Sequence record: NC_055781.1
Length of the DNA: 64,000 nucleotides
Strand: one strand, 5' to 3'
Origin: Escherichia phage p000v
Shown: in pieces, positions 1,045-24,044 of the stretch
How positions within the stretch are numbered: position 1 is the first letter of the stretch
Layout of the letters: each line of letters begins with the position of its first letter
Made by a program: the position numbers and the translations under genes
Notes under the pieces: model-generated
The model's database searches: none
What the model was told of the DNA's origin: nothing
Seen by the model: only the letters and a program-made list of their open reading frames with translations

Positions 1045-3014
1045 TGTGAAATAGGCTCCAAATCTATAGTTAAGTACTGAGGACGTAAGTCATTTTCAAA
1101 TACGATTAAAGAACCATCCTTTGTAAAAATAATATCATCTGCAGGGTCGGAATAAAGTTCAATTGTTTGAACTTCAAAACGGTCTGAAGTGAGGTCAATT
1201 TTAGCAATGTTCCAATAAATCGAATCGGCAGGATAATTCACTTCACCAATTGAATAGTATTTGTTTCGTCCGTCAGTAACAGCAAGTTTATTAAAATCAT
1301 TACCTGTATAAGGTTGTATATTTTCGTTTTCAACAACATCGCCGTCTGCAAATGGGCCAATAATAACTTGACCTATGCCACGGTCATTACGGTCAGAAGA
1401 TACTATGCGAACACCGTATTTAATAGTTTCGTTTGCATTTTCTGGATTAGGTCTGTGCGAATCAAACGAGAATATATTAGATTCCATCGATCTATCTTTA
1501 ATCTGATTATTGTATTTAATACCGGCCTCAGGCGTTTTATAAAAGTTCTGTACTTCGCGAACCATTTGAATAGTAGCCGAAGAACCAATAATAGAAATAT
1601 CTGCATCATCGACATAAGTTAGCATTTTAGATTTTGCAAACGATGAGTTAAAAATTTCTACATCTTCAATATAATATCGGTCAATTTTATTAATAATCTG
1701 TCCTTCAAGGTATTGCTCTGATTCTTGAAGTTTATTCAACGCGTATGTAACTTTGATATTCATTTTGATAAACAAATAATCAGGCGAAATAACAACAGGT
1801 GTAATAGTCCCTAAGTTATAATCATTTAAATAGTTTTTGATGTCGTCGCGTTGAACAGAAGTCAAATACAATCCAGATTTAGGCTTAGCAGCAATATATG
1901 CGTACCCGGGTTTAGACGAATCTGTGAATGTTTGAACTGCTTGAATAATAGAACCAAACCGCTCAGAGACGAATGTGTCATAGTCGGAAGCGGTTACACA
2001 ACGTTGTTGAGTTTCACGTTTAATTGTGCCTAATTCTCGAATACGTTCAATATCTTCAGGGTCACCGCCACCATCAGCCCCGACAAAGTCTGGGTTATTG
2101 CTAGGGTTCTCGTTAATATCGATTACAGTGATATTAGCTAATGTATCAGCATAAGAAAATCCTACAGCACCGTTAGCATCTGCGCCATTAGTAGAAATAT
2201 ACTCAATTACGATTTTAGAACCCTGAACAGGCTTAAGGCCACCAATATAGTTGGATGTTAACGCGCCTTCTGATGTGTTAATAGAGATTTCGCCTTCACC
2301 AAAATAAAATTCGGTGTTCCCATCAACAGTTTCACGCATATAATAGATTGTTGACGTAGAACCAGCGTGAACCATCGACTTACGAGTCCAGTTAATCCAT
2401 TCTGCTCCGTCAACATACAACTTAACCAAATTACGGTCAATATTCTTATCACGAATAATGATAGGTTTTAATTTATCAAATGTTAATTCAGTGCGAACAA
2501 TACGACCCTGAGCTAATCGAAGACGTGGGAAATATTGATTATTTTTGTCTTTAACTACAATGACATCTTCAGTAGAAACAAAGTTATACGGGTTAACAGA
2601 AGTATCTTTAGCATATGCTAAGAAACGAGTGCCACGTGGAATGGTGATATAGTTTCTATTTAATGCATCTGTACATGTGAGCATAATTTCTGTTTGTGCC
2701 GCTGATTTAGATGAAGGCAGATATCCGTTATCTTGAGCCGCTTGTACAACAGAGCTACGCAAGTTTGCAGTGCGCATAAAACTTTCATACACTGCGCTAT
2801 TACTAAACTGTTGGATGTAAAGAGTGTTATATGCTAAAAGGTCGCACAATACGTTTAAGCGTGAACCTTCAAAATCATAATCAAGAAATTCATTCTGTCC
2901 ATGGAGCCATTCGATAATGTTTTGTTTGATTTCGGCAAATGTGCCCCCGATAAAAATCTCGGGAATAGCATTCGCTGTTCGGGTTAATTGATAATTTACA
3001 GGAGTGTTTGCCAT
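1041..3014 (-). CDS. 6: baseplate wedge protein gp6
   Basis: 657 aa; start set at MANTPVNYQLTRTANAIPE (ATG 3014, AGGA SD upstream) rather than longer track ORF; similarity to T4 gp6 along whole length. Confidence 0.92.
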   Translation of the reverse strand: MANTPVNYQLTRTANAIPEIFIGGTFAEIKQNIIEWLHGQNEFLDYDFEGSRLNVLCDLLAYNTLYIQQFSNSAVYESFMRTANLRSSVVQAAQDNGYLPSSKSAAQTEIMLTCTDALNRNYITIPRGTRFLAYAKDTSVNPYNFVSTEDVIVVKDKNNQYFPRLRLAQGRIVRTELTFDKLKPIIIRDKNIDRNLVKLYVDGAEWINWTRKSMVHAGSTSTIYYMRETVDGNTEFYFGEGEISINTSEGALTSNYIGGLKPVQGSKIVIEYISTNGADANGAVGFSYADTLANITVIDINENPSNNPDFVGADGGGDPEDIERIRELGTIKRETQQRCVTASDYDTFVSERFGSIIQAVQTFTDSSKPGYAYIAAKPKSGLYLTSVQRDDIKNYLNDYNLGTITPVVISPDYLFIKMNIKVTYALNKLQESEQYLEGQIINKIDRYYIEDVEIFNSSFAKSKMLTYVDDADISIIGSSATIQMVREVQNFYKTPEAGIKYNNQIKDRSMESNIFSFDSHRPNPENANETIKYGVRIVSSDRNDRGIGQVIIGPFADGDVVENENIQPYTGNDFNKLAVTDGRNKYYSIGEVNYPADSIYWNIAKIDLTSDRFEVQTIELYSDPADDIIFTKDGSLIVFENDLRPQYLTIDLEPISQ

Positions 3015-3022
3015 TTTAATTC

Positions 3023-3316
3023 CTATTTGATAAAGACTTTTGACGAGGCCTGAGAAACAGTATCCCCGCATGAAATTGGGTCAGCCATTTGAACGGCCTT
3101 TTTACCGGTGACGTATACTTTAGATGTACGAGGTTCAGTAACACCTCCATGAGTCTCGTATGGTTTTTTAATTTCTGTATGAGGTGTTATTTGGTCTCCT
3201 GCTACAAGAACAGGAATACCGCCGGTGAACACTTTAGATTGGGAAGCATTTATTACAGTAGGAGGCCATGCTTCATGACCTGTTGTAACGCACTTGTCGT
3301 AACTTAAGCCAGACAT
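3023..3316 (-). CDS. 5.4: PAAR-repeat spike-tip protein gp5.4
   Basis: 97 aa from [19 protein letters not shown]; matches T4 gp5.4 as recalled; track ORF N-terminal extension rejected. Confidence 0.85.
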
Positions 3317-3837: not shown

Positions 3838-5571
3838 TTACCCAATATCAATACGAGATCCGTCAACAGTGTATTGTCCTGAAGCTACTGAGCTCATTGT
3901 AGACATCGTTTCTGCCCAATCCCCGGCAACAGTCATATCAACATTACCATTAACAGTCCATTTAACGTTTCCGTTGACGGTGTAATCATGATTCCCTTCG
4001 ACCTGAGTTTTAGCATCACCTTTAACAAGAATATCTGCATTTCCGTCAACAACTATTTTGATATTACCCTTAACGTAAAGAGTTCCATCGCCTTCAACAG
4101 TTTTAGTTTGGTTACCACGAATAAAGATTGTGTCATTGCCGTCTATTTGATGGAGGCGATCTGCCATGTTATAATATATTTCATTAGCACCAACGTTAAC
4201 AAGCTTATCACCAGAAATCAAGAAGTTCCCATCGCCATTAGTGATGTCAAAAAGGTCTTCTACAGTTTTACGAGTACGACGCCCGGATGGAGAAACTTCC
4301 TCATATGACCCTGTTGGATGAACTAAGCGATAACGTTCATTACCTGGAGTGTCATCAAATTCTTGGATATGACCACTTTCTGTTTCCATAGCATGAACAT
4401 ATGGATACTCACCACGATAACTTGATTCCGGTTCTTTAAAAAGGATGCGTGAATCTAATGGAACAGGAGGACCGGCCGGGTCTTCTGAATCGGTATTTCT
4501 AGTAACTAAATCGGCACCAACTCCTGGTGAAGGTGGTGTTTTAACAGGAACACCGTACGATTCCATGTTACCAGTTAAAATAATTGTTGTTACGCGTGAA
4601 GCACGTCCTTTAGTCTGTTGGAACCATAATGAATCACGCCCGGATTTGTATGCAGTTTTCCAATCACCTGTGGCCATTGCTTTAAGCATAGTATTGAATT
4701 TTGCTACGCCACCAACGCCCATTTGGAAGCACATGTTTTCTAATGCCATTTGACGAGACCTGTTCATTTTAGCATAAACAGGACCTACTTTGGAATTAGA
4801 ACGAATGTCTTTCTGCATCTTAGCAAGGTCTTTCTCAAATAACGCTGTTGCTTCTTCTAATGTAATAGTTCCCGGATTTCCTGTTACTTCACGCCCTACT
4901 TGATCGGATAACAATTTATTAATTCGAGACATATCTCGGGTCTTTTCCATTACGATAAGGTGTCCAATACCTACTGTAGGATATCCGAGATGGTCCCAAT
5001 ACACTTTATCACGAAGTCCTTCGTCACGACGTAACATTTCCGTTATTGTAAAATTAGGGTCATCATCTTCTGGAATATTTGCTAAATCTGTATCGTCTGG
5101 GTTTATACCATAATCCAAGTTGTTATCTTGAATTACGTTAGAGTTTGAATAATAACCGGCTTCACCACCTTGGTTTAATACGTTAGTATCATTACCTAAA
5201 CGTCGTGGATATTGGCCTGTCGGGTCTGAAAAACCTTCAAGTCTATTAGGCTTTTCACGTACGATTCCGCCGTATGTACCAAGTACAATCCCGTTTGTTT
5301 TCCATTTGTCTAAGAAATGACCATATACTCGAGTTCCTTCAACAGGACCTGTAACAGAACCACCAATACCTGACATTGATGCGGACGTAATAGGTTGAAT
5401 AACAGTCATCCATGGAAGTTTTTCTGTAGGAATACCTTGCACATCACCTTGTGCTCTCTGTGCTGGATGAAGACCAACGACTCGAACTCGAACTCGCCCT
5501 TGTTTTAATGGGTCCATTCTGTCCTCGACAACACCCACGAACCAATTAAGGCTACTGCTAATCATTTCCAT
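3838..5571 (-). CDS. 5: baseplate hub / cell-puncturing protein gp5 with lysozyme domain
   Basis: 577 aa; T4-lysozyme-like segment (GIGHL...WFQQTKGRASRVTTIILTG) and C-terminal beta-helix repeats (VxGNxxxTV). Confidence 0.93.
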   Translation of the reverse strand: MEMISSSLNWFVGVVEDRMDPLKQGRVRVRVVGLHPAQRAQGDVQGIPTEKLPWMTVIQPITSASMSGIGGSVTGPVEGTRVYGHFLDKWKTNGIVLGTYGGIVREKPNRLEGFSDPTGQYPRRLGNDTNVLNQGGEAGYYSNSNVIQDNNLDYGINPDDTDLANIPEDDDPNFTITEMLRRDEGLRDKVYWDHLGYPTVGIGHLIVMEKTRDMSRINKLLSDQVGREVTGNPGTITLEEATALFEKDLAKMQKDIRSNSKVGPVYAKMNRSRQMALENMCFQMGVGGVAKFNTMLKAMATGDWKTAYKSGRDSLWFQQTKGRASRVTTIILTGNMESYGVPVKTPPSPGVGADLVTRNTDSEDPAGPPVPLDSRILFKEPESSYRGEYPYVHAMETESGHIQEFDDTPGNERYRLVHPTGSYEEVSPSGRRTRKTVEDLFDITNGDGNFLISGDKLVNVGANEIYYNMADRLHQIDGNDTIFIRGNQTKTVEGDGTLYVKGNIKIVVDGNADILVKGDAKTQVEGNHDYTVNGNVKWTVNGNVDMTVAGDWAETMSTMSSVASGQYTVDGSRIDIG

Positions 5572-6146
5572 TATGCAATCTCCATCTCACGAATCAAATC
5601 AGTAATAAACGAGTTTATATCTTCTTTTGCAACAATTTTTATTTTACGAAGTTTTTCATTATCTAATACTGCCGCTTCATAAGTATCTACTGCAGCTAAA
5701 GGTCCTTTATATTGCGGATACTTACGAGCTTCGTCACCTTTGTCATACCACACTAAAGGCTCATCCGGATATGAAACTAAATTGTAAAATTTCTCACGGT
5801 TCTCGTTAATATGGTAAAGAATTTGGTCTCCGCCAGCATTTGCATATTTCTGAATAGACGCTTGATACGCTGCTTCCTGAGATGTAATCCAACCATAATA
5901 TGGGTCATAGTTATCATTGCACATCAAAAGGACCCAGTATAATTGAGGGTTGCCATAAATTATGTTTGCTAGTTCTTCAGGACGCGGAGAGCCTTTAATA
6001 TAATAAGAACGTAATCTATAATTAGCAGCAACACGCTTAAAGTACTCTTTATAGTTACGAAATATGTCTGTCATAGGAATAGTAGGTGCATTCTTATCAA
6101 CTGTTTTAGCACTATATCCTATTGGGTCGAAGAATGTAAATAACAA
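5571..6146 (-). CDS. 53: baseplate wedge protein gp53
   Basis: 191 aa MLFTFFDPIGY...; first codon is TTG preceded by AGGAGA SD; 1-nt overlap with gp5 start. Confidence 0.85.
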   Translation of the reverse strand: MLFTFFDPIGYSAKTVDKNAPTIPMTDIFRNYKEYFKRVAANYRLRSYYIKGSPRPEELANIIYGNPQLYWVLLMCNDNYDPYYGWITSQEAAYQASIQKYANAGGDQILYHINENREKFYNLVSYPDEPLVWYDKGDEARKYPQYKGPLAAVDTYEAAVLDNEKLRKIKIVAKEDINSFITDLIREMEIA

Positions 6147-9606: not shown

Positions 9607-10292
<686 letters not shown>

Positions 10293-10368: not shown

Positions 10369-10680
10369 ATGAAAACGTATCAAGAGTTTATCGCAGAAGC
10401 TACTAAAGCCGATAAAAATTTTATTATTAACACCACCGGTCCGTTAGATGATGAATACGCTAATGCTATTATTAAGTCAATTTCTAATCAAGGCGTTGAA
10501 GTAACAAATTTCGAATATAAGAAAAATGATACTTATATGGTAATTAGTATCAAAAAAGGTTCAAAGGCTAAAATTAAATCTGCATTTGGTGTTATGCGAG
10601 TCGACCAAATCGATAACCACGATTTTTCACAAACAGGGGTCAAACGCCAGAATACTATTTCATCTAAAGGCATAAAATAG
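10369..10680 (+). CDS. internal protein with capsid targeting sequence (IPI-locus protein)
   Basis: Starts MKTYQEFIAEA, the T4 internal-protein capsid-targeting leader; located next to 57B where T4 has ipI. Confidence 0.8.
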   Translation: MKTYQEFIAEATKADKNFIINTTGPLDDEYANAIIKSISNQGVEVTNFEYKKNDTYMVISIKKGSKAKIKSAFGVMRVDQIDNHDFSQTGVKRQNTISSKGIK

Positions 10681-12181: not shown

Positions 12182-12253
12182 GGCCCTGTAGCTCAATGGG
12201 AGAGCTGTCAGCTCATAACTGATAGGTAGCTGGATCGAAACCAGCCAGGGCCA
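12182..12253 (+). tRNA. tRNA with CAU anticodon (elongator Met or Ile2-type); CCA not encoded
   Basis: Hand-folded cloverleaf: acceptor GGCCCTG/CAGGGCC, D-stem GCTC/GAGC, anticodon stem GTCAG/CTGAT with loop CTCATAA, T-stem GCTGG/CCAGC; 1-72 pair is G-C so not an initiator. Confidence 0.8.
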
Positions 12254-12294
12254 TATTTTGGGAACATAAATACTCTTAGAAATAGGAGATATTT

Positions 12295-12963
12295 ATGTTC
12301 CATTACACTTATAAAATAACAAATAAAATTAATAATAAAATCTATATAGGCGCTCATTCTACCGAAAATTTAGATGATGGATATATGGGTTCTGGTAAAT
12401 TATTAAAAAGAGCCCAAGACAAGTATGGTATAGAAAATTTTAATAAAGAAATTTTAGAATTCTTTGACACTAAAGAGCAGATGTTTGAAGCCGAGAAAAA
12501 TATCGTAAACGAAGAATTTTTGAATCGTTCTGACGTATATAATTTAAAACTTGGTGGCGAAGGTGGTTGGGACCATTTAAATACTTACGAATTTAATTAT
12601 AAAAAGAAAGAAGCCTCTATTAAAGGAGCCAAAGCTTTTAAAGAGAGATTTGATTCTGATGAAGTGCTTCAAGAAAAATATCGTAAAATGGGTTCAGAGA
12701 AATTAAAGCATCTGTGGACTTTACCTGAATACAGAGAAAAATTCTCTAGCACTAAGTCGTTTTTAAATAAAAATCATACTTCCGAAACTATTGCTAAAAT
12801 GAAAGATACCCACGCCAGGAACAAACACCAACAAGGCGAGAAAAATTCCCAGTTTGGTACTATGTGGATTCATTCATTAGAAGAAAAGAAATCTAAGAAA
12901 ATTAAGAAAACCGATCCTATTCCGGAAGGTTGGATTAAAGGCTATAAACTAAAATTTAAGTGA
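12295..12963 (+). CDS. GIY-YIG homing endonuclease (SegB-like, tRNA region)
   Basis: YKITNKINNKIYIGAHS...GSGKL GIY-YIG motif; adjacent to tRNA as T4 segB. Confidence 0.85.
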   Translation: MFHYTYKITNKINNKIYIGAHSTENLDDGYMGSGKLLKRAQDKYGIENFNKEILEFFDTKEQMFEAEKNIVNEEFLNRSDVYNLKLGGEGGWDHLNTYEFNYKKKEASIKGAKAFKERFDSDEVLQEKYRKMGSEKLKHLWTLPEYREKFSSTKSFLNKNHTSETIAKMKDTHARNKHQQGEKNSQFGTMWIHSLEEKKSKKIKKTDPIPEGWIKGYKLKFK

Positions 12964-12970
12964 GGAAAAT

Positions 12971-13316
12971 ATGAAAGGTAATATTTATCTGGTAGTTCAT
13001 GATTTAACGTTTTATTTTAACGAACAGGATACAGTTATTTCGCGACCGGTTGATTAATTCATTATATCAACACGCTGATTACGTTTATTTCCAAAATGAA
13101 TTTGGCCATTGGAAGTTCCTTAAAAATCGTTCCGGGTTAACTAGTTTTGAATACTTTGACCGTAAAGACCTTTTAAACGAAATTCCATTGCAACATCGGT
13201 TCCAGAAACGCGAATCATTATATTATTGCCGTCATATACCAAACGCAGAATGTGCCAATGAAGCGATTAATCTATGGCGTAGACGTAGAGAACAAATTGA
13301 TGATATGCCAAAATAA
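12971..13316 (+). pseudogene. possible frameshifted gene (28-codon ORF with strong SD, then 88-codon frame lacking ATG)
   Basis: ATG 12971 with GAGGA SD opens a 28-codon frame ending 13057; an overlapping frame is open from 13008 to 13316 with no ATG; T-rich run at 13011-13020. Confidence 0.35.
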
Positions 13317-13617
13317 GAAGCCGGGTCGCTACCGGCAAGACGTCGGACTGATGTTCCCTGGGTAAGGACTGGTCTTAATAAATCTTTACGATTTGTTAAT
13401 ATCCCCTTACATCACAGCAGAAACGGCGCGCAGAATTATCGATTCGAGGAAATATCTTTGCCGTAAGCCGAGTAGCGTTTTTGACGGAACGTTCGGATAT
13501 GGTCGAGATATGGCCTTTTAAAAATATTGAGTAGCGTCAACTGCTTAATAACCGGGTTCGAATCCCGGCGTTTCGTACAAACACTTACCTAGTAGGTGGA
13601 AACCCCGACAAGGTATA
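13317..13617 (+). ncRNA. candidate stable small RNA(s) with tRNA-like 3' element (analogous to T4 RNA C/D region)
   Basis: 300-bp ORF-free stretch beside tRNA/seg locus; T-arm-like CCGGGTTCGAATCCCGG (13552-13568) plus acceptor-like pairing CGGAACG/CGTTTCG; ends at strong terminator. Confidence 0.3.
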
Positions 13618-13647
13618 AAGCCCCTTCCGAAAGGTTGGGGCTTTTTT
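13618..13647 (+). terminator. intrinsic terminator
   Basis: Stem AAGCCCC/GGGGCTT followed by TTTTTT. Confidence 0.8.
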
Positions 13648-13648
13648 G

Positions 13649-13656
13649 TATAAATA
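13649..13656 (+). promoter_or_regulatory. T4-type late promoter TATAAATA
   Basis: Exact TATAAATA 36 nt upstream of CTS protein gene at 13692. Confidence 0.6.
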
Positions 13657-13691
13657 TAGTAAACAATAAACCTACTTTCTAAGGACCATCG

Positions 13692-14318
13692 ATGTATACT
13701 TTTAATGAATTTTTAGCCGAAACGGAAGTAATCACCGAAGCCGGTGTACGTATGACAAAAGAGAAATGGCAAGCTGCTTACGATGCTATTTCTGGTACAA
13801 AAACTAGTACAGAGTTTTTCAAAAACGTTCAAGCCATGTACGGTATCGACACTTCCAGCCAAAAAGAATATTACAGAGCTTCTAAAGCATTCAAAGATAT
13901 TGTTAGTGGTGGTGTTTCTGCTAAATCTGGTTCGCCTAAAGTAAAACCTGCTCCTACCATTCCTAAACCTGCGACCCCTAAAGCAATAGCAAAACCTGAG
14001 CCTAAGCCTGAAGTAAAAGCAACTCCTAAAGCTCCTGCTCTTAAGTTTGATACTTCTAGCCTGGAAAAAAAATATAGACAACTATCTTCGCTTGTTCGTG
14101 ATATTGAATCCGATACATCTTCACTCGTTCGTGAATTCAATAGTCTTCGTAATGGCCAACATATCAACAACCTTGATACCCCAGACCTTTATCGTCTTTA
14201 TTTGACTATCGAAGGTTTGAAGTATACTCAACCACTTCATGATGAGATTAAAGAAAAACTTCGACAAGCAGGTCGTTTGGCTGCTGACGCTGCTCAGTAT
14301 GCAAAAACTCGTAAGTAA
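13692..14318 (+). CDS. capsid-targeted protein (CTS-like leader MYTFNEFLAE) with Pro/Lys-rich linker
   Basis: N-terminus resembles internal-protein leader; PKxKPAPTIPKPATPK repeat region; late promoter upstream. Confidence 0.7.
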   Translation: MYTFNEFLAETEVITEAGVRMTKEKWQAAYDAISGTKTSTEFFKNVQAMYGIDTSSQKEYYRASKAFKDIVSGGVSAKSGSPKVKPAPTIPKPATPKAIAKPEPKPEVKATPKAPALKFDTSSLEKKYRQLSSLVRDIESDTSSLVREFNSLRNGQHINNLDTPDLYRLYLTIEGLKYTQPLHDEIKEKLRQAGRLAADAAQYAKTRK

Positions 14319-14370
14319 AGAATGGGGACTTCGGTCCCCATTAGGGGGTCTATAACTTACTGAAAAAGTT

Positions 14371-14399
14371 GTTTACTTCTTCCCTAGATGTGTTACTAT
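14371..14399 (+). promoter_or_regulatory. early-type promoter (GTTTAC / TACTAT)
   Basis: 17-bp spacer; same cassette family as other early promoters in window. Confidence 0.55.
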
Positions 14400-21555: not shown

Positions 21556-22044
21556 ATGAATATATTTGAAATGCTTCGTAATGACGAAGGTCTTAGACTG
21601 ACTTTATACAAAGACACCGAAGGCTTTTGGACGATTGGCATAGGCCATTTGGTAACAAAGAACCCGTCTTTAGCCGTAGCTAAAGCTGAACTTGACAGAA
21701 TGATCGGTCGTAAATGCAACGGCACAATTACCCTTGATGAGGCTGAAAAGCTATTTAATGAAGACGTTGATAAAGCCGTTCGTGGAATCTTGGGTAATGC
21801 TAAACTTAAACCAGTGTATGATTCTTTAGACGCGGTTCGTCGATGTGCATTAGTCAATATGGTCTTCCAAATGGGTGTAGCAGGCGTCGCAGGTTTTACT
21901 AATTCTCTTCGTATGCTTCAACAGAAACGTTGGGATGAAGCGGCAGTAAATCTAGCCCAATCTAAATGGTATCGTCAGACACCTAATCGCGCGAAACGCG
22001 TAATCTCAACATTTAAAACAGGAACTTGGAAAGCGTATATATGA
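21556..22044 (+). CDS. e: endolysin (T4 lysozyme E)
   Basis: [32 protein letters not shown]...; near-colinear with T4 lysozyme; start ATG 21556 with GGGAGG SD. Confidence 0.95.
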
Positions 22045-22322
22045 AAACATATAGTGAATTTTTATCAGAATCTATTCTTAACGAAGCTACCGACACATTT
22101 GCAACTAAGCTAGGTGCAGCTTTGGTTGAAGCGGAAAGTCTATTAGCACGTATTTCTGAACTTGCCAGTAAGATAGATACTCGCAAATTTGAACGTACCA
22201 GTGATATCGTTAAGCTTGAAGCCTTGTTGCGTATGTGCGATAAACCGGAAGAAATCGCTAAGAACGGCTCGTTAATGAAACAACGTCTTGAAAAATATAT
22301 TTCAGGCGCTTCAGAAAAATAG
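22041..22322 (+). CDS. capsid-targeted internal protein (CTS leader [10 protein letters not shown])
   Basis: ATG overlaps e stop (ATGA); N-terminal leader matches internal-protein CTS. Confidence 0.7.
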
Positions 22323-23125: not shown

Positions 23126-23440
23126 ATGAAAACGTATAAAGAATTTATTGCAGAATCCGCCAACCAACGCGTTGAAGGTGGTTATATTTGGATTGAACAA
23201 GTTGAGCCACCGAGCCGCACTTCTACAGGTAAATGGAAAATTACCGTTGATGGTCCTGGTGGTAAACGTAGGACTCTTAAAGAAATTAACGGGTACTATG
23301 AAGAAGCTCTTTCGGATGCAGGAACTTACATGATGCAAATCATGATTAAAAACCCTGAAAACCGTTTTGCAGCTAAAGTCTTCCGCCGCATCGGTAATAA
23401 ACTTTATGATGCATACTCTAAAAACTTCCCTAAAGAATAA
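23126..23440 (+). CDS. internal protein (IPII-position, CTS leader MKTYKEFIAE)
   Basis: 104 aa basic protein with canonical CTS; position after denV as T4 ipII. Confidence 0.8.
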   Translation: MKTYKEFIAESANQRVEGGYIWIEQVEPPSRTSTGKWKITVDGPGGKRRTLKEINGYYEEALSDAGTYMMQIMIKNPENRFAAKVFRRIGNKLYDAYSKNFPKE

Positions 23441-23465: not shown

Positions 23466-24044
23466 ATGAAAACTTATAAAGAATTTATCGCCGAGGCCTT
23501 TGCAGGAAAAGCTCAAGGCATTAATAAGGACGAGTGGAATTATCGTGGCGGAAACGGCTTTGACCCTAAAACTGCTCCACTTGAACGATATCTAGCCACA
23601 AAAGCTTCTGATTTTAAAGCATTCGCTTGGGAAGGACTTCGCTGGCGTAACGATCTAAATATTGAAGTTGACGGACTCAAATTTGCTCATATTGAAGATG
23701 TTGTTGCTAGTAACTTAGATGCAGCTTTTGTTAAAGCCGACAGCGACCTTCGTCGCTGGAATTTAAAACTGTTCTCTAAACAAAAAGGCCCGAAGTTTGT
23801 GCCTAAAGCAGGTAAATGGGTTATTGATAATAAATTGGCTAAAGCTGTCAACTACGCTGGGCTTGAATTTGCCAAGCATAAATCATCATGGAAAGGTCTT
23901 GATGCAATGACTTTCCGTAAAGAATTTGCCGATGTTATGGCTAAAGGCGGCTTTAAGGCAGAAATAGATACCTCTAAAGGTACGTTTAAAGACGCTAATG
24001 TTCAGTACGCTTACGCCGTTGCTAATGCAGCCCGTGGTAATTAA
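23466..24044 (+). CDS. internal protein (IPIII-position, CTS leader MKTYKEFIAEA)
   Basis: 192 aa with canonical CTS; size and position as T4 ipIII. Confidence 0.8.
   Translation: MKTYKEFIAEAFAGKAQGINKDEWNYRGGNGFDPKTAPLERYLATKASDFKAFAWEGLRWRNDLNIEVDGLKFAHIEDVVASNLDAAFVKADSDLRRWNLKLFSKQKGPKFVPKAGKWVIDNKLAKAVNYAGLEFAKHKSSWKGLDAMTFRKEFADVMAKGGFKAEIDTSKGTFKDANVQYAYAVANAARGN

Follow-up and report, generated by a model that had tools for sequence, protein, structure and literature searches.

The open reading frame (ORF) that follows the stable-RNA genes in the window, as we call the whole 64-kb stretch of DNA (64,000 nucleotides) analysed here, probably encodes an internal protein of the T4 type that has not yet been annotated as such. 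The protein would be made late, targeted by a capsid-targeting sequence (CTS), cleaved, packaged and injected with the DNA. Late transcription, packaging, cleavage, injection and function are what we infer by analogy with the known internal proteins (IPs). The preliminary description had regarded late expression as fitting a virion-packaged protein. This case is strengthened by sequence comparison: leader and late-promoter core recur across 10 genera, and the leader is also found on annotated IPs.

The target gene and its predicted product

The window was assigned to Mosigvirus (RB69-like, T4-type coliphages); a 2-kb stretch around the locus is 94–98% identical to many Mosigvirus genomes, and the record of Escherichia phage p000v carries an identical 208-aa protein. 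The features of the locus and its surroundings are listed in Table 1. The ORF matches the family phrog_2280 (E = 6.6e-58), has relatives in 137 phage records as found by tblastn, and shows a pN/pS ratio of 0.20 in comparison with phage G53. By these measures it is a real gene under purifying selection. Two ORFs on the minus strand (13713–14081 and 13871–14170) were attributed to the low complexity of the linker and dismissed, protein-level conservation being found in the plus frame.

Table 1. Features of the target locus and of its gene neighbourhood (window coordinates)
Feature	Position	Strand	Remarks
Genes 4, 2, 3, 1, 57A		+	First block of T4-like order
57B	9837–10292	+	
Internal protein, ipI position	10369–10680	+	
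trna.x ORFs, then tRNA-Met	12182–12253 (tRNA-Met)	+	
segB-like GIY-YIG homing endonuclease	12260–12951	+	76% aa identity to T4 SegB
rnaD (species 2 stable RNA) homologue	13313–13429	+	blastn, 85% identity to T4 rnaD over 118 nt
rnaC (species 1 stable RNA) homologue	13439–13577	+	98.6% identity to T4 rnaC, all 139 nt
Intrinsic terminator of the tRNA/stable-RNA unit	13617–13647	+	Hairpin −17.8 kcal/mol, z = −3.5, then UUUUUU
T4-type late promoter box TATAAATA	13649–13656	+	Exact match, 35 nt before ATG
Shine-Dalgarno sequence AAGGA	13681–13685	+	6 nt before ATG; AAGGA or GGA kept there in homologous loci
Coding sequence, candidate internal head protein, phrog_2280	13692–14318	+	208 aa, 23.2 kDa precursor; stop 14316–14318
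Predicted propeptide, residues 1–16	13692–13739	+	Leader MYTFNEFLAE (site LAE10/T) and TEVITE (site ITE16/A)
N-terminal three-helix domain, residues 17–73	13740–13910	+	Conserved core G-x-RMTK-x-KW; AlphaFold2
Disordered basic Pro/Lys/Ala-rich linker, residues 74–117	13911–14042	+	pLDDT below 50
C-terminal helical bundle or hairpin domain, residues 118–208	14043–14315	+	AlphaFold2
UUCG-tetraloop hairpin (GGGGAC-UUCG-GUCCCC), directly 3′ of stop, without U-run	14321–14342	+	−15.5 kcal/mol, z = −3.0
Early-type sigma-70-like promoter, GTTTAC-N17-TACTAT, for next gene (14430)	14371–14399	+	Inferred, read from sequence
Target gene, followed by e.x genes, then lysozyme e	21556 (lysozyme e)	+	
Three further leader-bearing ORFs 3′ of lysozyme e, among them the IPIII homologue	23466–24044 (IPIII homologue)	+	

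The structure was predicted with AlphaFold2 from a 22-sequence alignment. The N-terminal domain is modelled with a pLDDT of about 83 (84.7 when modelled alone), and the C-terminal domain contains predicted helices at residues 122–153, 164–177 and 180–206 with values of about 83–94. The C-terminal helical domain of the preliminary description is thus borne out by the model. Its Pro/Lys-rich repeat linker is indeed Pro/Lys-rich and of low complexity, but there is no true tandem repeat: the stretch singled out, PKVKPAPTIPKPATPK (residues 82–97), lies within a P/K/A-rich segment of variable length, which has 44 residues here (11 Pro, 9 Lys, 8 Ala) and 33–50 in the homologs. The mature form is computed to have 192–198 residues, a mass of about 21 kDa, a pI of 9.6–9.75 and a net charge of +11 to +13. 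The IPIII homologue encoded in the window is similarly basic (pI 9.5).

A leader of the capsid-targeting type

In T4, IPII and IPIII start with MKTYQEFIAE/A and IPI with MKTFKEF...STITE/A (the slash marks the cleavage site). Dissection of the IPIII leader assigned positions 4 and 7 to targeting and positions 8 and 10 to processing; the protease motif is L/I-x-E, and Asp at position 10 prevents cleavage (PMC9026906; PMC8442874). The target leader has Phe4, Phe7, Leu8 and Glu10, a suitable residue at each of the four critical CTS positions. It had been called a divergent capsid-targeting leader, and this reading holds, as the critical residues are present and the leader is common to the annotated IPs of the window. 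Among the five leaders in the window, that of the target diverges most (MYTF versus MKTY; Thr after Glu10), the residue following Glu10 usually being Ala or Ser.

Two candidate processing sites were recognized by sequence match, L8-A9-E10 and I14-T15-E16/A17, with cleavage predicted. The second of these, ITE/A, is identical to the IPI cleavage site in both the tripeptide and the P1′ residue. The N-terminus is acidic, with a net charge of −4 over residues 1–16, and the protein has neither a signal peptide nor a transmembrane segment. The ORF thus combines the sequence features of the class: a CTS, an L/I-x-E site with Glu at P1, a late promoter and a basic mature protein.

Among the ATG-initiated ORFs of at least 40 aa in the 64-kb window, 5 out of 676 carry the leader pattern M..[FY].[ED][FIL][LIVT].E, which did not occur in any of 50 shuffled windows. 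The other four belong to phrog_2667 and phrog_3499 (internal head proteins), phrog_5341 (internal virion protein, the IPIII homologue) and phrog_3966 (unknown function). The phrog_3966 protein (23126–23440, plus strand; 104 aa) is encoded just upstream of the IPIII homologue and starts with MKTYKEFIAE/S. By its capsid-targeting leader it is a second candidate for an unannotated internal protein. In the phrog_3499 protein (22041–22322, plus strand), the leader is followed by SILNE/A, so that it has tandem protease-type sites like the target. This protein is acidic to neutral (pI 5.5), unlike the other IPs of the window.

Leader and processing site are retained in a family that exchanges its domains

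The leader is found at residue 1 in 46 of the 48 full-length members among the retrieved sequences. The family occurs in Mosig-, Dhaka-, Karam-, Winkler-, Kanagawa-, Kagamiyama-, Teguna-, Marfa- and Jiaodavirus. Overall identity drops to 30–40%, and the leader, the protease-type site and the core G-x-RMTK-x-KW are still kept. In all members the core is immediately preceded by one or more [LIV]-x-E/[AS] sites. From 0 to 8 residues separate the two sites, depending on the member, a variation that would be expected of a discarded propeptide. One of the two exceptions, P0016, has a 9-residue form of the leader, MKFKDFL.E, which is also that of the Jiaodavirus orthologs (MKFKDFLTE); a distant relative, P0053, is without leader.

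The C-terminal domain has been replaced by an unrelated one in Kanagawavirus IME523, in the Jiaodaviruses (KP179), and in P0040–44 and P0049, all of which keep leader, N-terminal domain and linker. Conversely, P0051 has leader, linker and C-terminal domain in common with the target and a different N-terminal domain. The orthologs with swapped domains are found at 2501–3127 (IME523), 392–976 (KP179) and 301–885 (ValerieMcCarty04) of the retrieved loci. The alternative C-terminal domain of about 95 residues has tblastn matches in 58 records of Klebsiella, Enterobacter and Raoultella phages.

A HMMER search over 1.84 billion representative sequences gave 13 proteins, and all 10 that were retrieved are family members or swapped-domain variants. 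From these sequences the family appears to be confined to T4-type phages. A scan of IMG/VR viral contigs for the leader pattern returned three loci, all of which were already in the set; the yield is low because the pattern matches several hundred unrelated stretches.

A conserved late-type promoter between a terminator and a putative early promoter

The preliminary description had placed an exact TATAAATA late promoter 36 nt upstream of the ORF. The box is exact, and the distance counted is 35 nt. Its frequency in the window does not exceed the chance level (6 copies versus 8.4 ± 3.3 in shuffled sequences). However, all five plus-strand copies are located 24–35 nt upstream of ORF starts, including that of the gp4 homologue, and upstream of two classic late genes, lysozyme e and rI, there are variants with one mismatch, AATAAATA. 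In all 16 homologous loci compared, which represent nine genera, the core ATAAATA is found 34–45 nt ahead of the ATG within otherwise differing sequence. The exact TATAAATA is present in eight of them; in the others the first base is G, C or A. A tenth genus is added by Jiaodavirus KP179 with an exact TATAAATA 30 nt upstream, which makes 17 of 17 loci. Judged on the sequence data, the promoter box is significant beyond chance through its position and conservation, not its count.

The terminator upstream of the box has its counterpart in phage G53, where the corresponding site is annotated as a terminator, and in T4, where the same terminator follows rnaC. Downstream of the gene, the UUCG-tetraloop hairpin is probably a stabiliser of the transcript 3′ end or an attenuator. 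The sigma-70-like element behind it scores below the threshold of the promoter scanner, and the same element precedes e.8 in T4; it may mark the downstream edge of a cassette. Gene and late promoter would form a self-contained cassette, since they are placed between a terminator and an early promoter. The boundaries of this putative cassette resemble the module boundaries described for the plastic regions of T4-type phages (PMC2839356). ‘Promoter-early stem-loop’ cassettes have been proposed to mediate gene shuffling in these phages, and the hairpin and early-type promoter at 14321–14399 resemble such elements (PMC2839356).

The locus in T4 and RB69

T4 does not have the gene: its spacer of about 190 nt from the rnaC terminator to the e.8 promoter contains neither an ORF nor TATAAATA. 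As both elements, terminator and early promoter, enclose the empty spacer in T4 as they do the gene here, the target gene is an indel relative to T4. T4 e.8 and e.7 were ruled out as homologues, their sequences being unrelated. In RB69 (NC_004928), a strongly diverged allele starting with MKTYAEFLTE/A is present at 5429–5991 of the retrieved locus on the minus strand. The RB69 record divides it into RB69ORF149c (146 aa) and the overlapping RB69ORF148c (61 aa), probably owing to a frameshift in the type genome, be it real or a sequencing error.

The locus belongs to the plastic region of IP genes, tRNA genes and e. IP genes have been described as hypervariable, and by analogy the indel and the divergent RB69 allele match this behaviour (PMC3012670; PMC9026906).

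Database searches and relation to known internal proteins

The protein is annotated as ‘hypothetical protein’ in every record examined, and phrog_2280 as ‘unknown function’. Pfam, NCBIfam and PADLOC hold no family for it, and a profile search against PDB sequences gave chance-level matches alone. Structure comparison of the C-terminal domain returned nothing beyond generic coiled-coil and helical-bundle folds. Membership in the TonB family was rejected (17.6 bits versus a cut-off of 315; E = 0.0027), as the Pro/Lys spacer alone aligns (residues 80–120). The IPIII, IPII and IPI families (phrog_5341, phrog_3499, phrog_2667) were likewise rejected: the protein is found in phrog_2280 only, and the likeness ends at the leader.

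With T4 IPII and IPIII, the target shares a 10-residue CTS (aromatic residue at position 4, Phe at 7, Ile/Leu at 8, Glu at 10) and a basic mature protein. It is similar to IPIII (193 aa) in size and, like both, is non-essential, variably present among T4-type phages and encoded in the same plastic segment between genes 57B and denV. It differs from them in its PHROG family, with no BLAST or HMM link outside the leader, in the Pro/Lys/Ala linker and two-domain layout, and in being preceded by a late promoter of its own that adjoins a terminator. T4 IPI is similar in its longer propeptide ending in ITE/A (19 residues; 16, as predicted, in the target) and in the position of its gene adjoining the tRNA cluster. 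The target is nevertheless distinct from IPI and from the protein at the ipI position of the window, in that the mature parts are unrelated and the target has no PADLOC or Pfam match.

The polymorphic IPs packaged in T-even heads form a class that is defined by a conserved CTS alone, its members being otherwise unrelated (PMC3012670; PMC9026906). The target falls under this CTS-only definition, like the polymorphic IPs that bear the leader, for example ‘Ip9’ annotated in IME08. Those cluster at the ipI locus, from 57B to the tRNA genes, whereas the target family lies beyond the tRNA/rnaC/rnaD unit. Set against the reviews consulted (PMC3012670; PMC9026906), phrog_2280 is most likely a new family within the known IP class. 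The concept of the class is unchanged, because polymorphic CTS proteins have already been described (PMC3012670, 2010; PMC9026906, 2022).

Proposed pathway and alternative explanations

In the pathway that we propose, the terminator of the stable-RNA unit would keep early and middle transcripts started upstream from reading into the gene, and the gene's own late promoter would drive it while proheads are built. The leader MYTFNEFLAE, acting as CTS, would dock the precursor on the prohead scaffolding core. A gp21-type prohead protease would then cut after Glu10 (LAE/T), after Glu16 (ITE/A) or after both, Ala17 being the more canonical new N-terminus. Genes 21 and 22, both outside this window, are part of the core genome conserved among T4-related phages (PMC9026906). 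The basic mature protein (about 21 kDa, pI about 9.7, net charge about +13) would stay with the DNA in the head and enter the host. By analogy, it would most likely bind or protect DNA there, or counteract host defences in the way T4 IPI does. The helical-domain matches and the basic Pro/Lys/Ala linker of the model hint at DNA binding, but the scores are too low for such a claim. Domain exchange between lineages is what an arms-race effector would be expected to show.

A more specific form of this proposal would be a packaged linker-histone-like family in at least 10 genera, whose three-helix globule, basic tail and oligomerising helices coat, condense or shield the entering DNA and whose modules are swapped against host defences. 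If true, it would amount to a modular ‘delivery chassis plus effector’, as opposed to the single-domain inhibitor IPI. We consider it rather unlikely. The comparison with linker histone H1 and bacterial H1-like proteins is one of analogy, not membership: there is no sequence similarity, the target linker is far less lysine-rich than the H1 tail, and the H1 likeness scores are within the range of any three-helix domain of such size.

Virion proteomics or late-transcript maps detecting the family were not found in the literature on fHe-Yen9-01, Mosigvirus, JS98, Kosakonia Kc305, RB69, p000v and AV110. For CsCl-purified virions of Jiaodavirus phages (T4-like, infecting Klebsiella), an LC-MS/MS table lists 40 proteins that exceed 15 peptide-spectrum matches, including two annotated internal proteins and Alt; hypothetical proteins are all low-count according to the authors (PMC13119998). 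The ortholog ValerieMcCarty04 gp131 (WKM80661.1) is absent from the table of these 40 proteins (PMC13119998). It differs from the target in its 9-residue leader and its C-terminal domain. As far as this table goes, the ortholog, if packaged there, would therefore be low-copy or hard to detect.

The internal-protein reading shares its leader and late-type promoter with an unlikely alternative, a transient, scaffold-associated protein of the prohead core, which would be targeted by its leader and then degraded or expelled, and so be neither present in mature virions nor injected. The T4 core proteins gp22, gp67 and gp68 are lost during maturation. A helical, coiled-coil-like C-terminal domain, resembling scaffolding proteins in general, would suit such a protein, as would the absence of the ortholog from the tabulated abundant Jiaodavirus virion proteins (PMC13119998). 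T4 core proteins, however, are cut into many fragments (PMC9026906), and the mature part of the target has just two further [LIV]-x-E motifs (VRE146 and IKE186), both in confidently predicted helices. Further, the gene is dispensable in T4, apparently frameshifted in RB69 and subject to domain swapping, which points to accessory cargo and not to an assembly component. The scarcity of protease motifs and the accessory, swappable nature of the gene thus disfavour a core protein.

The retention of the leader also bears on a quite improbable reading, namely a late protein that remains in the cytoplasm or is directed to the envelope, is never packaged, and has an idle leader inherited via the 5′ segment (e.g. 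by recombination with an IP gene). In T4-type phages, short conserved sequences do serve as recombination sites for the shuffling of cassettes (PMC2839356), the TonB-like Pro/Lys spacer could suggest an envelope-spanning role, and the tabulated Jiaodavirus virion proteins provide no support for packaging (PMC13119998). Yet the four critical positions are kept in those 46 of 48 full-length members despite 30–40% identity, a protease-type site precedes the conserved core in every member, and residues 1–16 are acidic (−4) in a protein that has no signal peptide or transmembrane segment. An idle leader is disfavoured because exactly the functional leader positions are selectively retained.

That the ORF is non-functional, either by chance or as a decaying remnant 3′ of the stable-RNA genes, would agree with its absence from T4 and the split copy in RB69, but is practically untenable and effectively refuted by the conservation data, given the orthologs across genera (137 tblastn records), the pN/pS of 0.20, the conserved Shine-Dalgarno sequence and promoter, and the confident fold prediction.

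In an infected cell no phage protein acts earlier than the internal proteins, of which IPI alone has a known function. IPI inhibits GmrSD, a type IV restriction enzyme, and serves as the model case of a protein that is injected and acts ahead of all phage gene expression. As probable CTS cargo, phrog_2280 would turn from a ‘hypothetical’ family into a testable candidate for counter-defence or DNA protection, with a reach of well over a hundred genomes of therapeutic-candidate coliphages and of Klebsiella, Enterobacter, Serratia and Yersinia phages. The family also illustrates the natural tolerance of the leader (MYTF, MLNF, MLKF and the 9-residue form), which is useful for T4 protein-packaging and delivery platforms that employ it as a tag.

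Gene neighbourhood

The gene order on the plus strand is that of T4 reversed. A position next to an RNA region, as claimed at the outset, could be confirmed by blastn against T4, which identified rnaD and rnaC homologues directly upstream of the target gene. In an Rfam scan of the neighbourhood, tRNA-Met was the sole match, and rnaC and rnaD were without Rfam family at E-values up to 1. Compared with T4, rnaC is strikingly conserved between genera (98.6%) versus the adjacent rnaD (85%) and the downstream spacer (77%). The T4 record gives rnaC no role beyond ‘small, stable RNA’. The segB-like gene stands where phage G53 and RB69 have a tRNA-Arg (4877–4952 in the G53 locus), tRNA-Met alone being left here. 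The ATG of the endonuclease gene is preceded by CATAAATA, 22 nt upstream.
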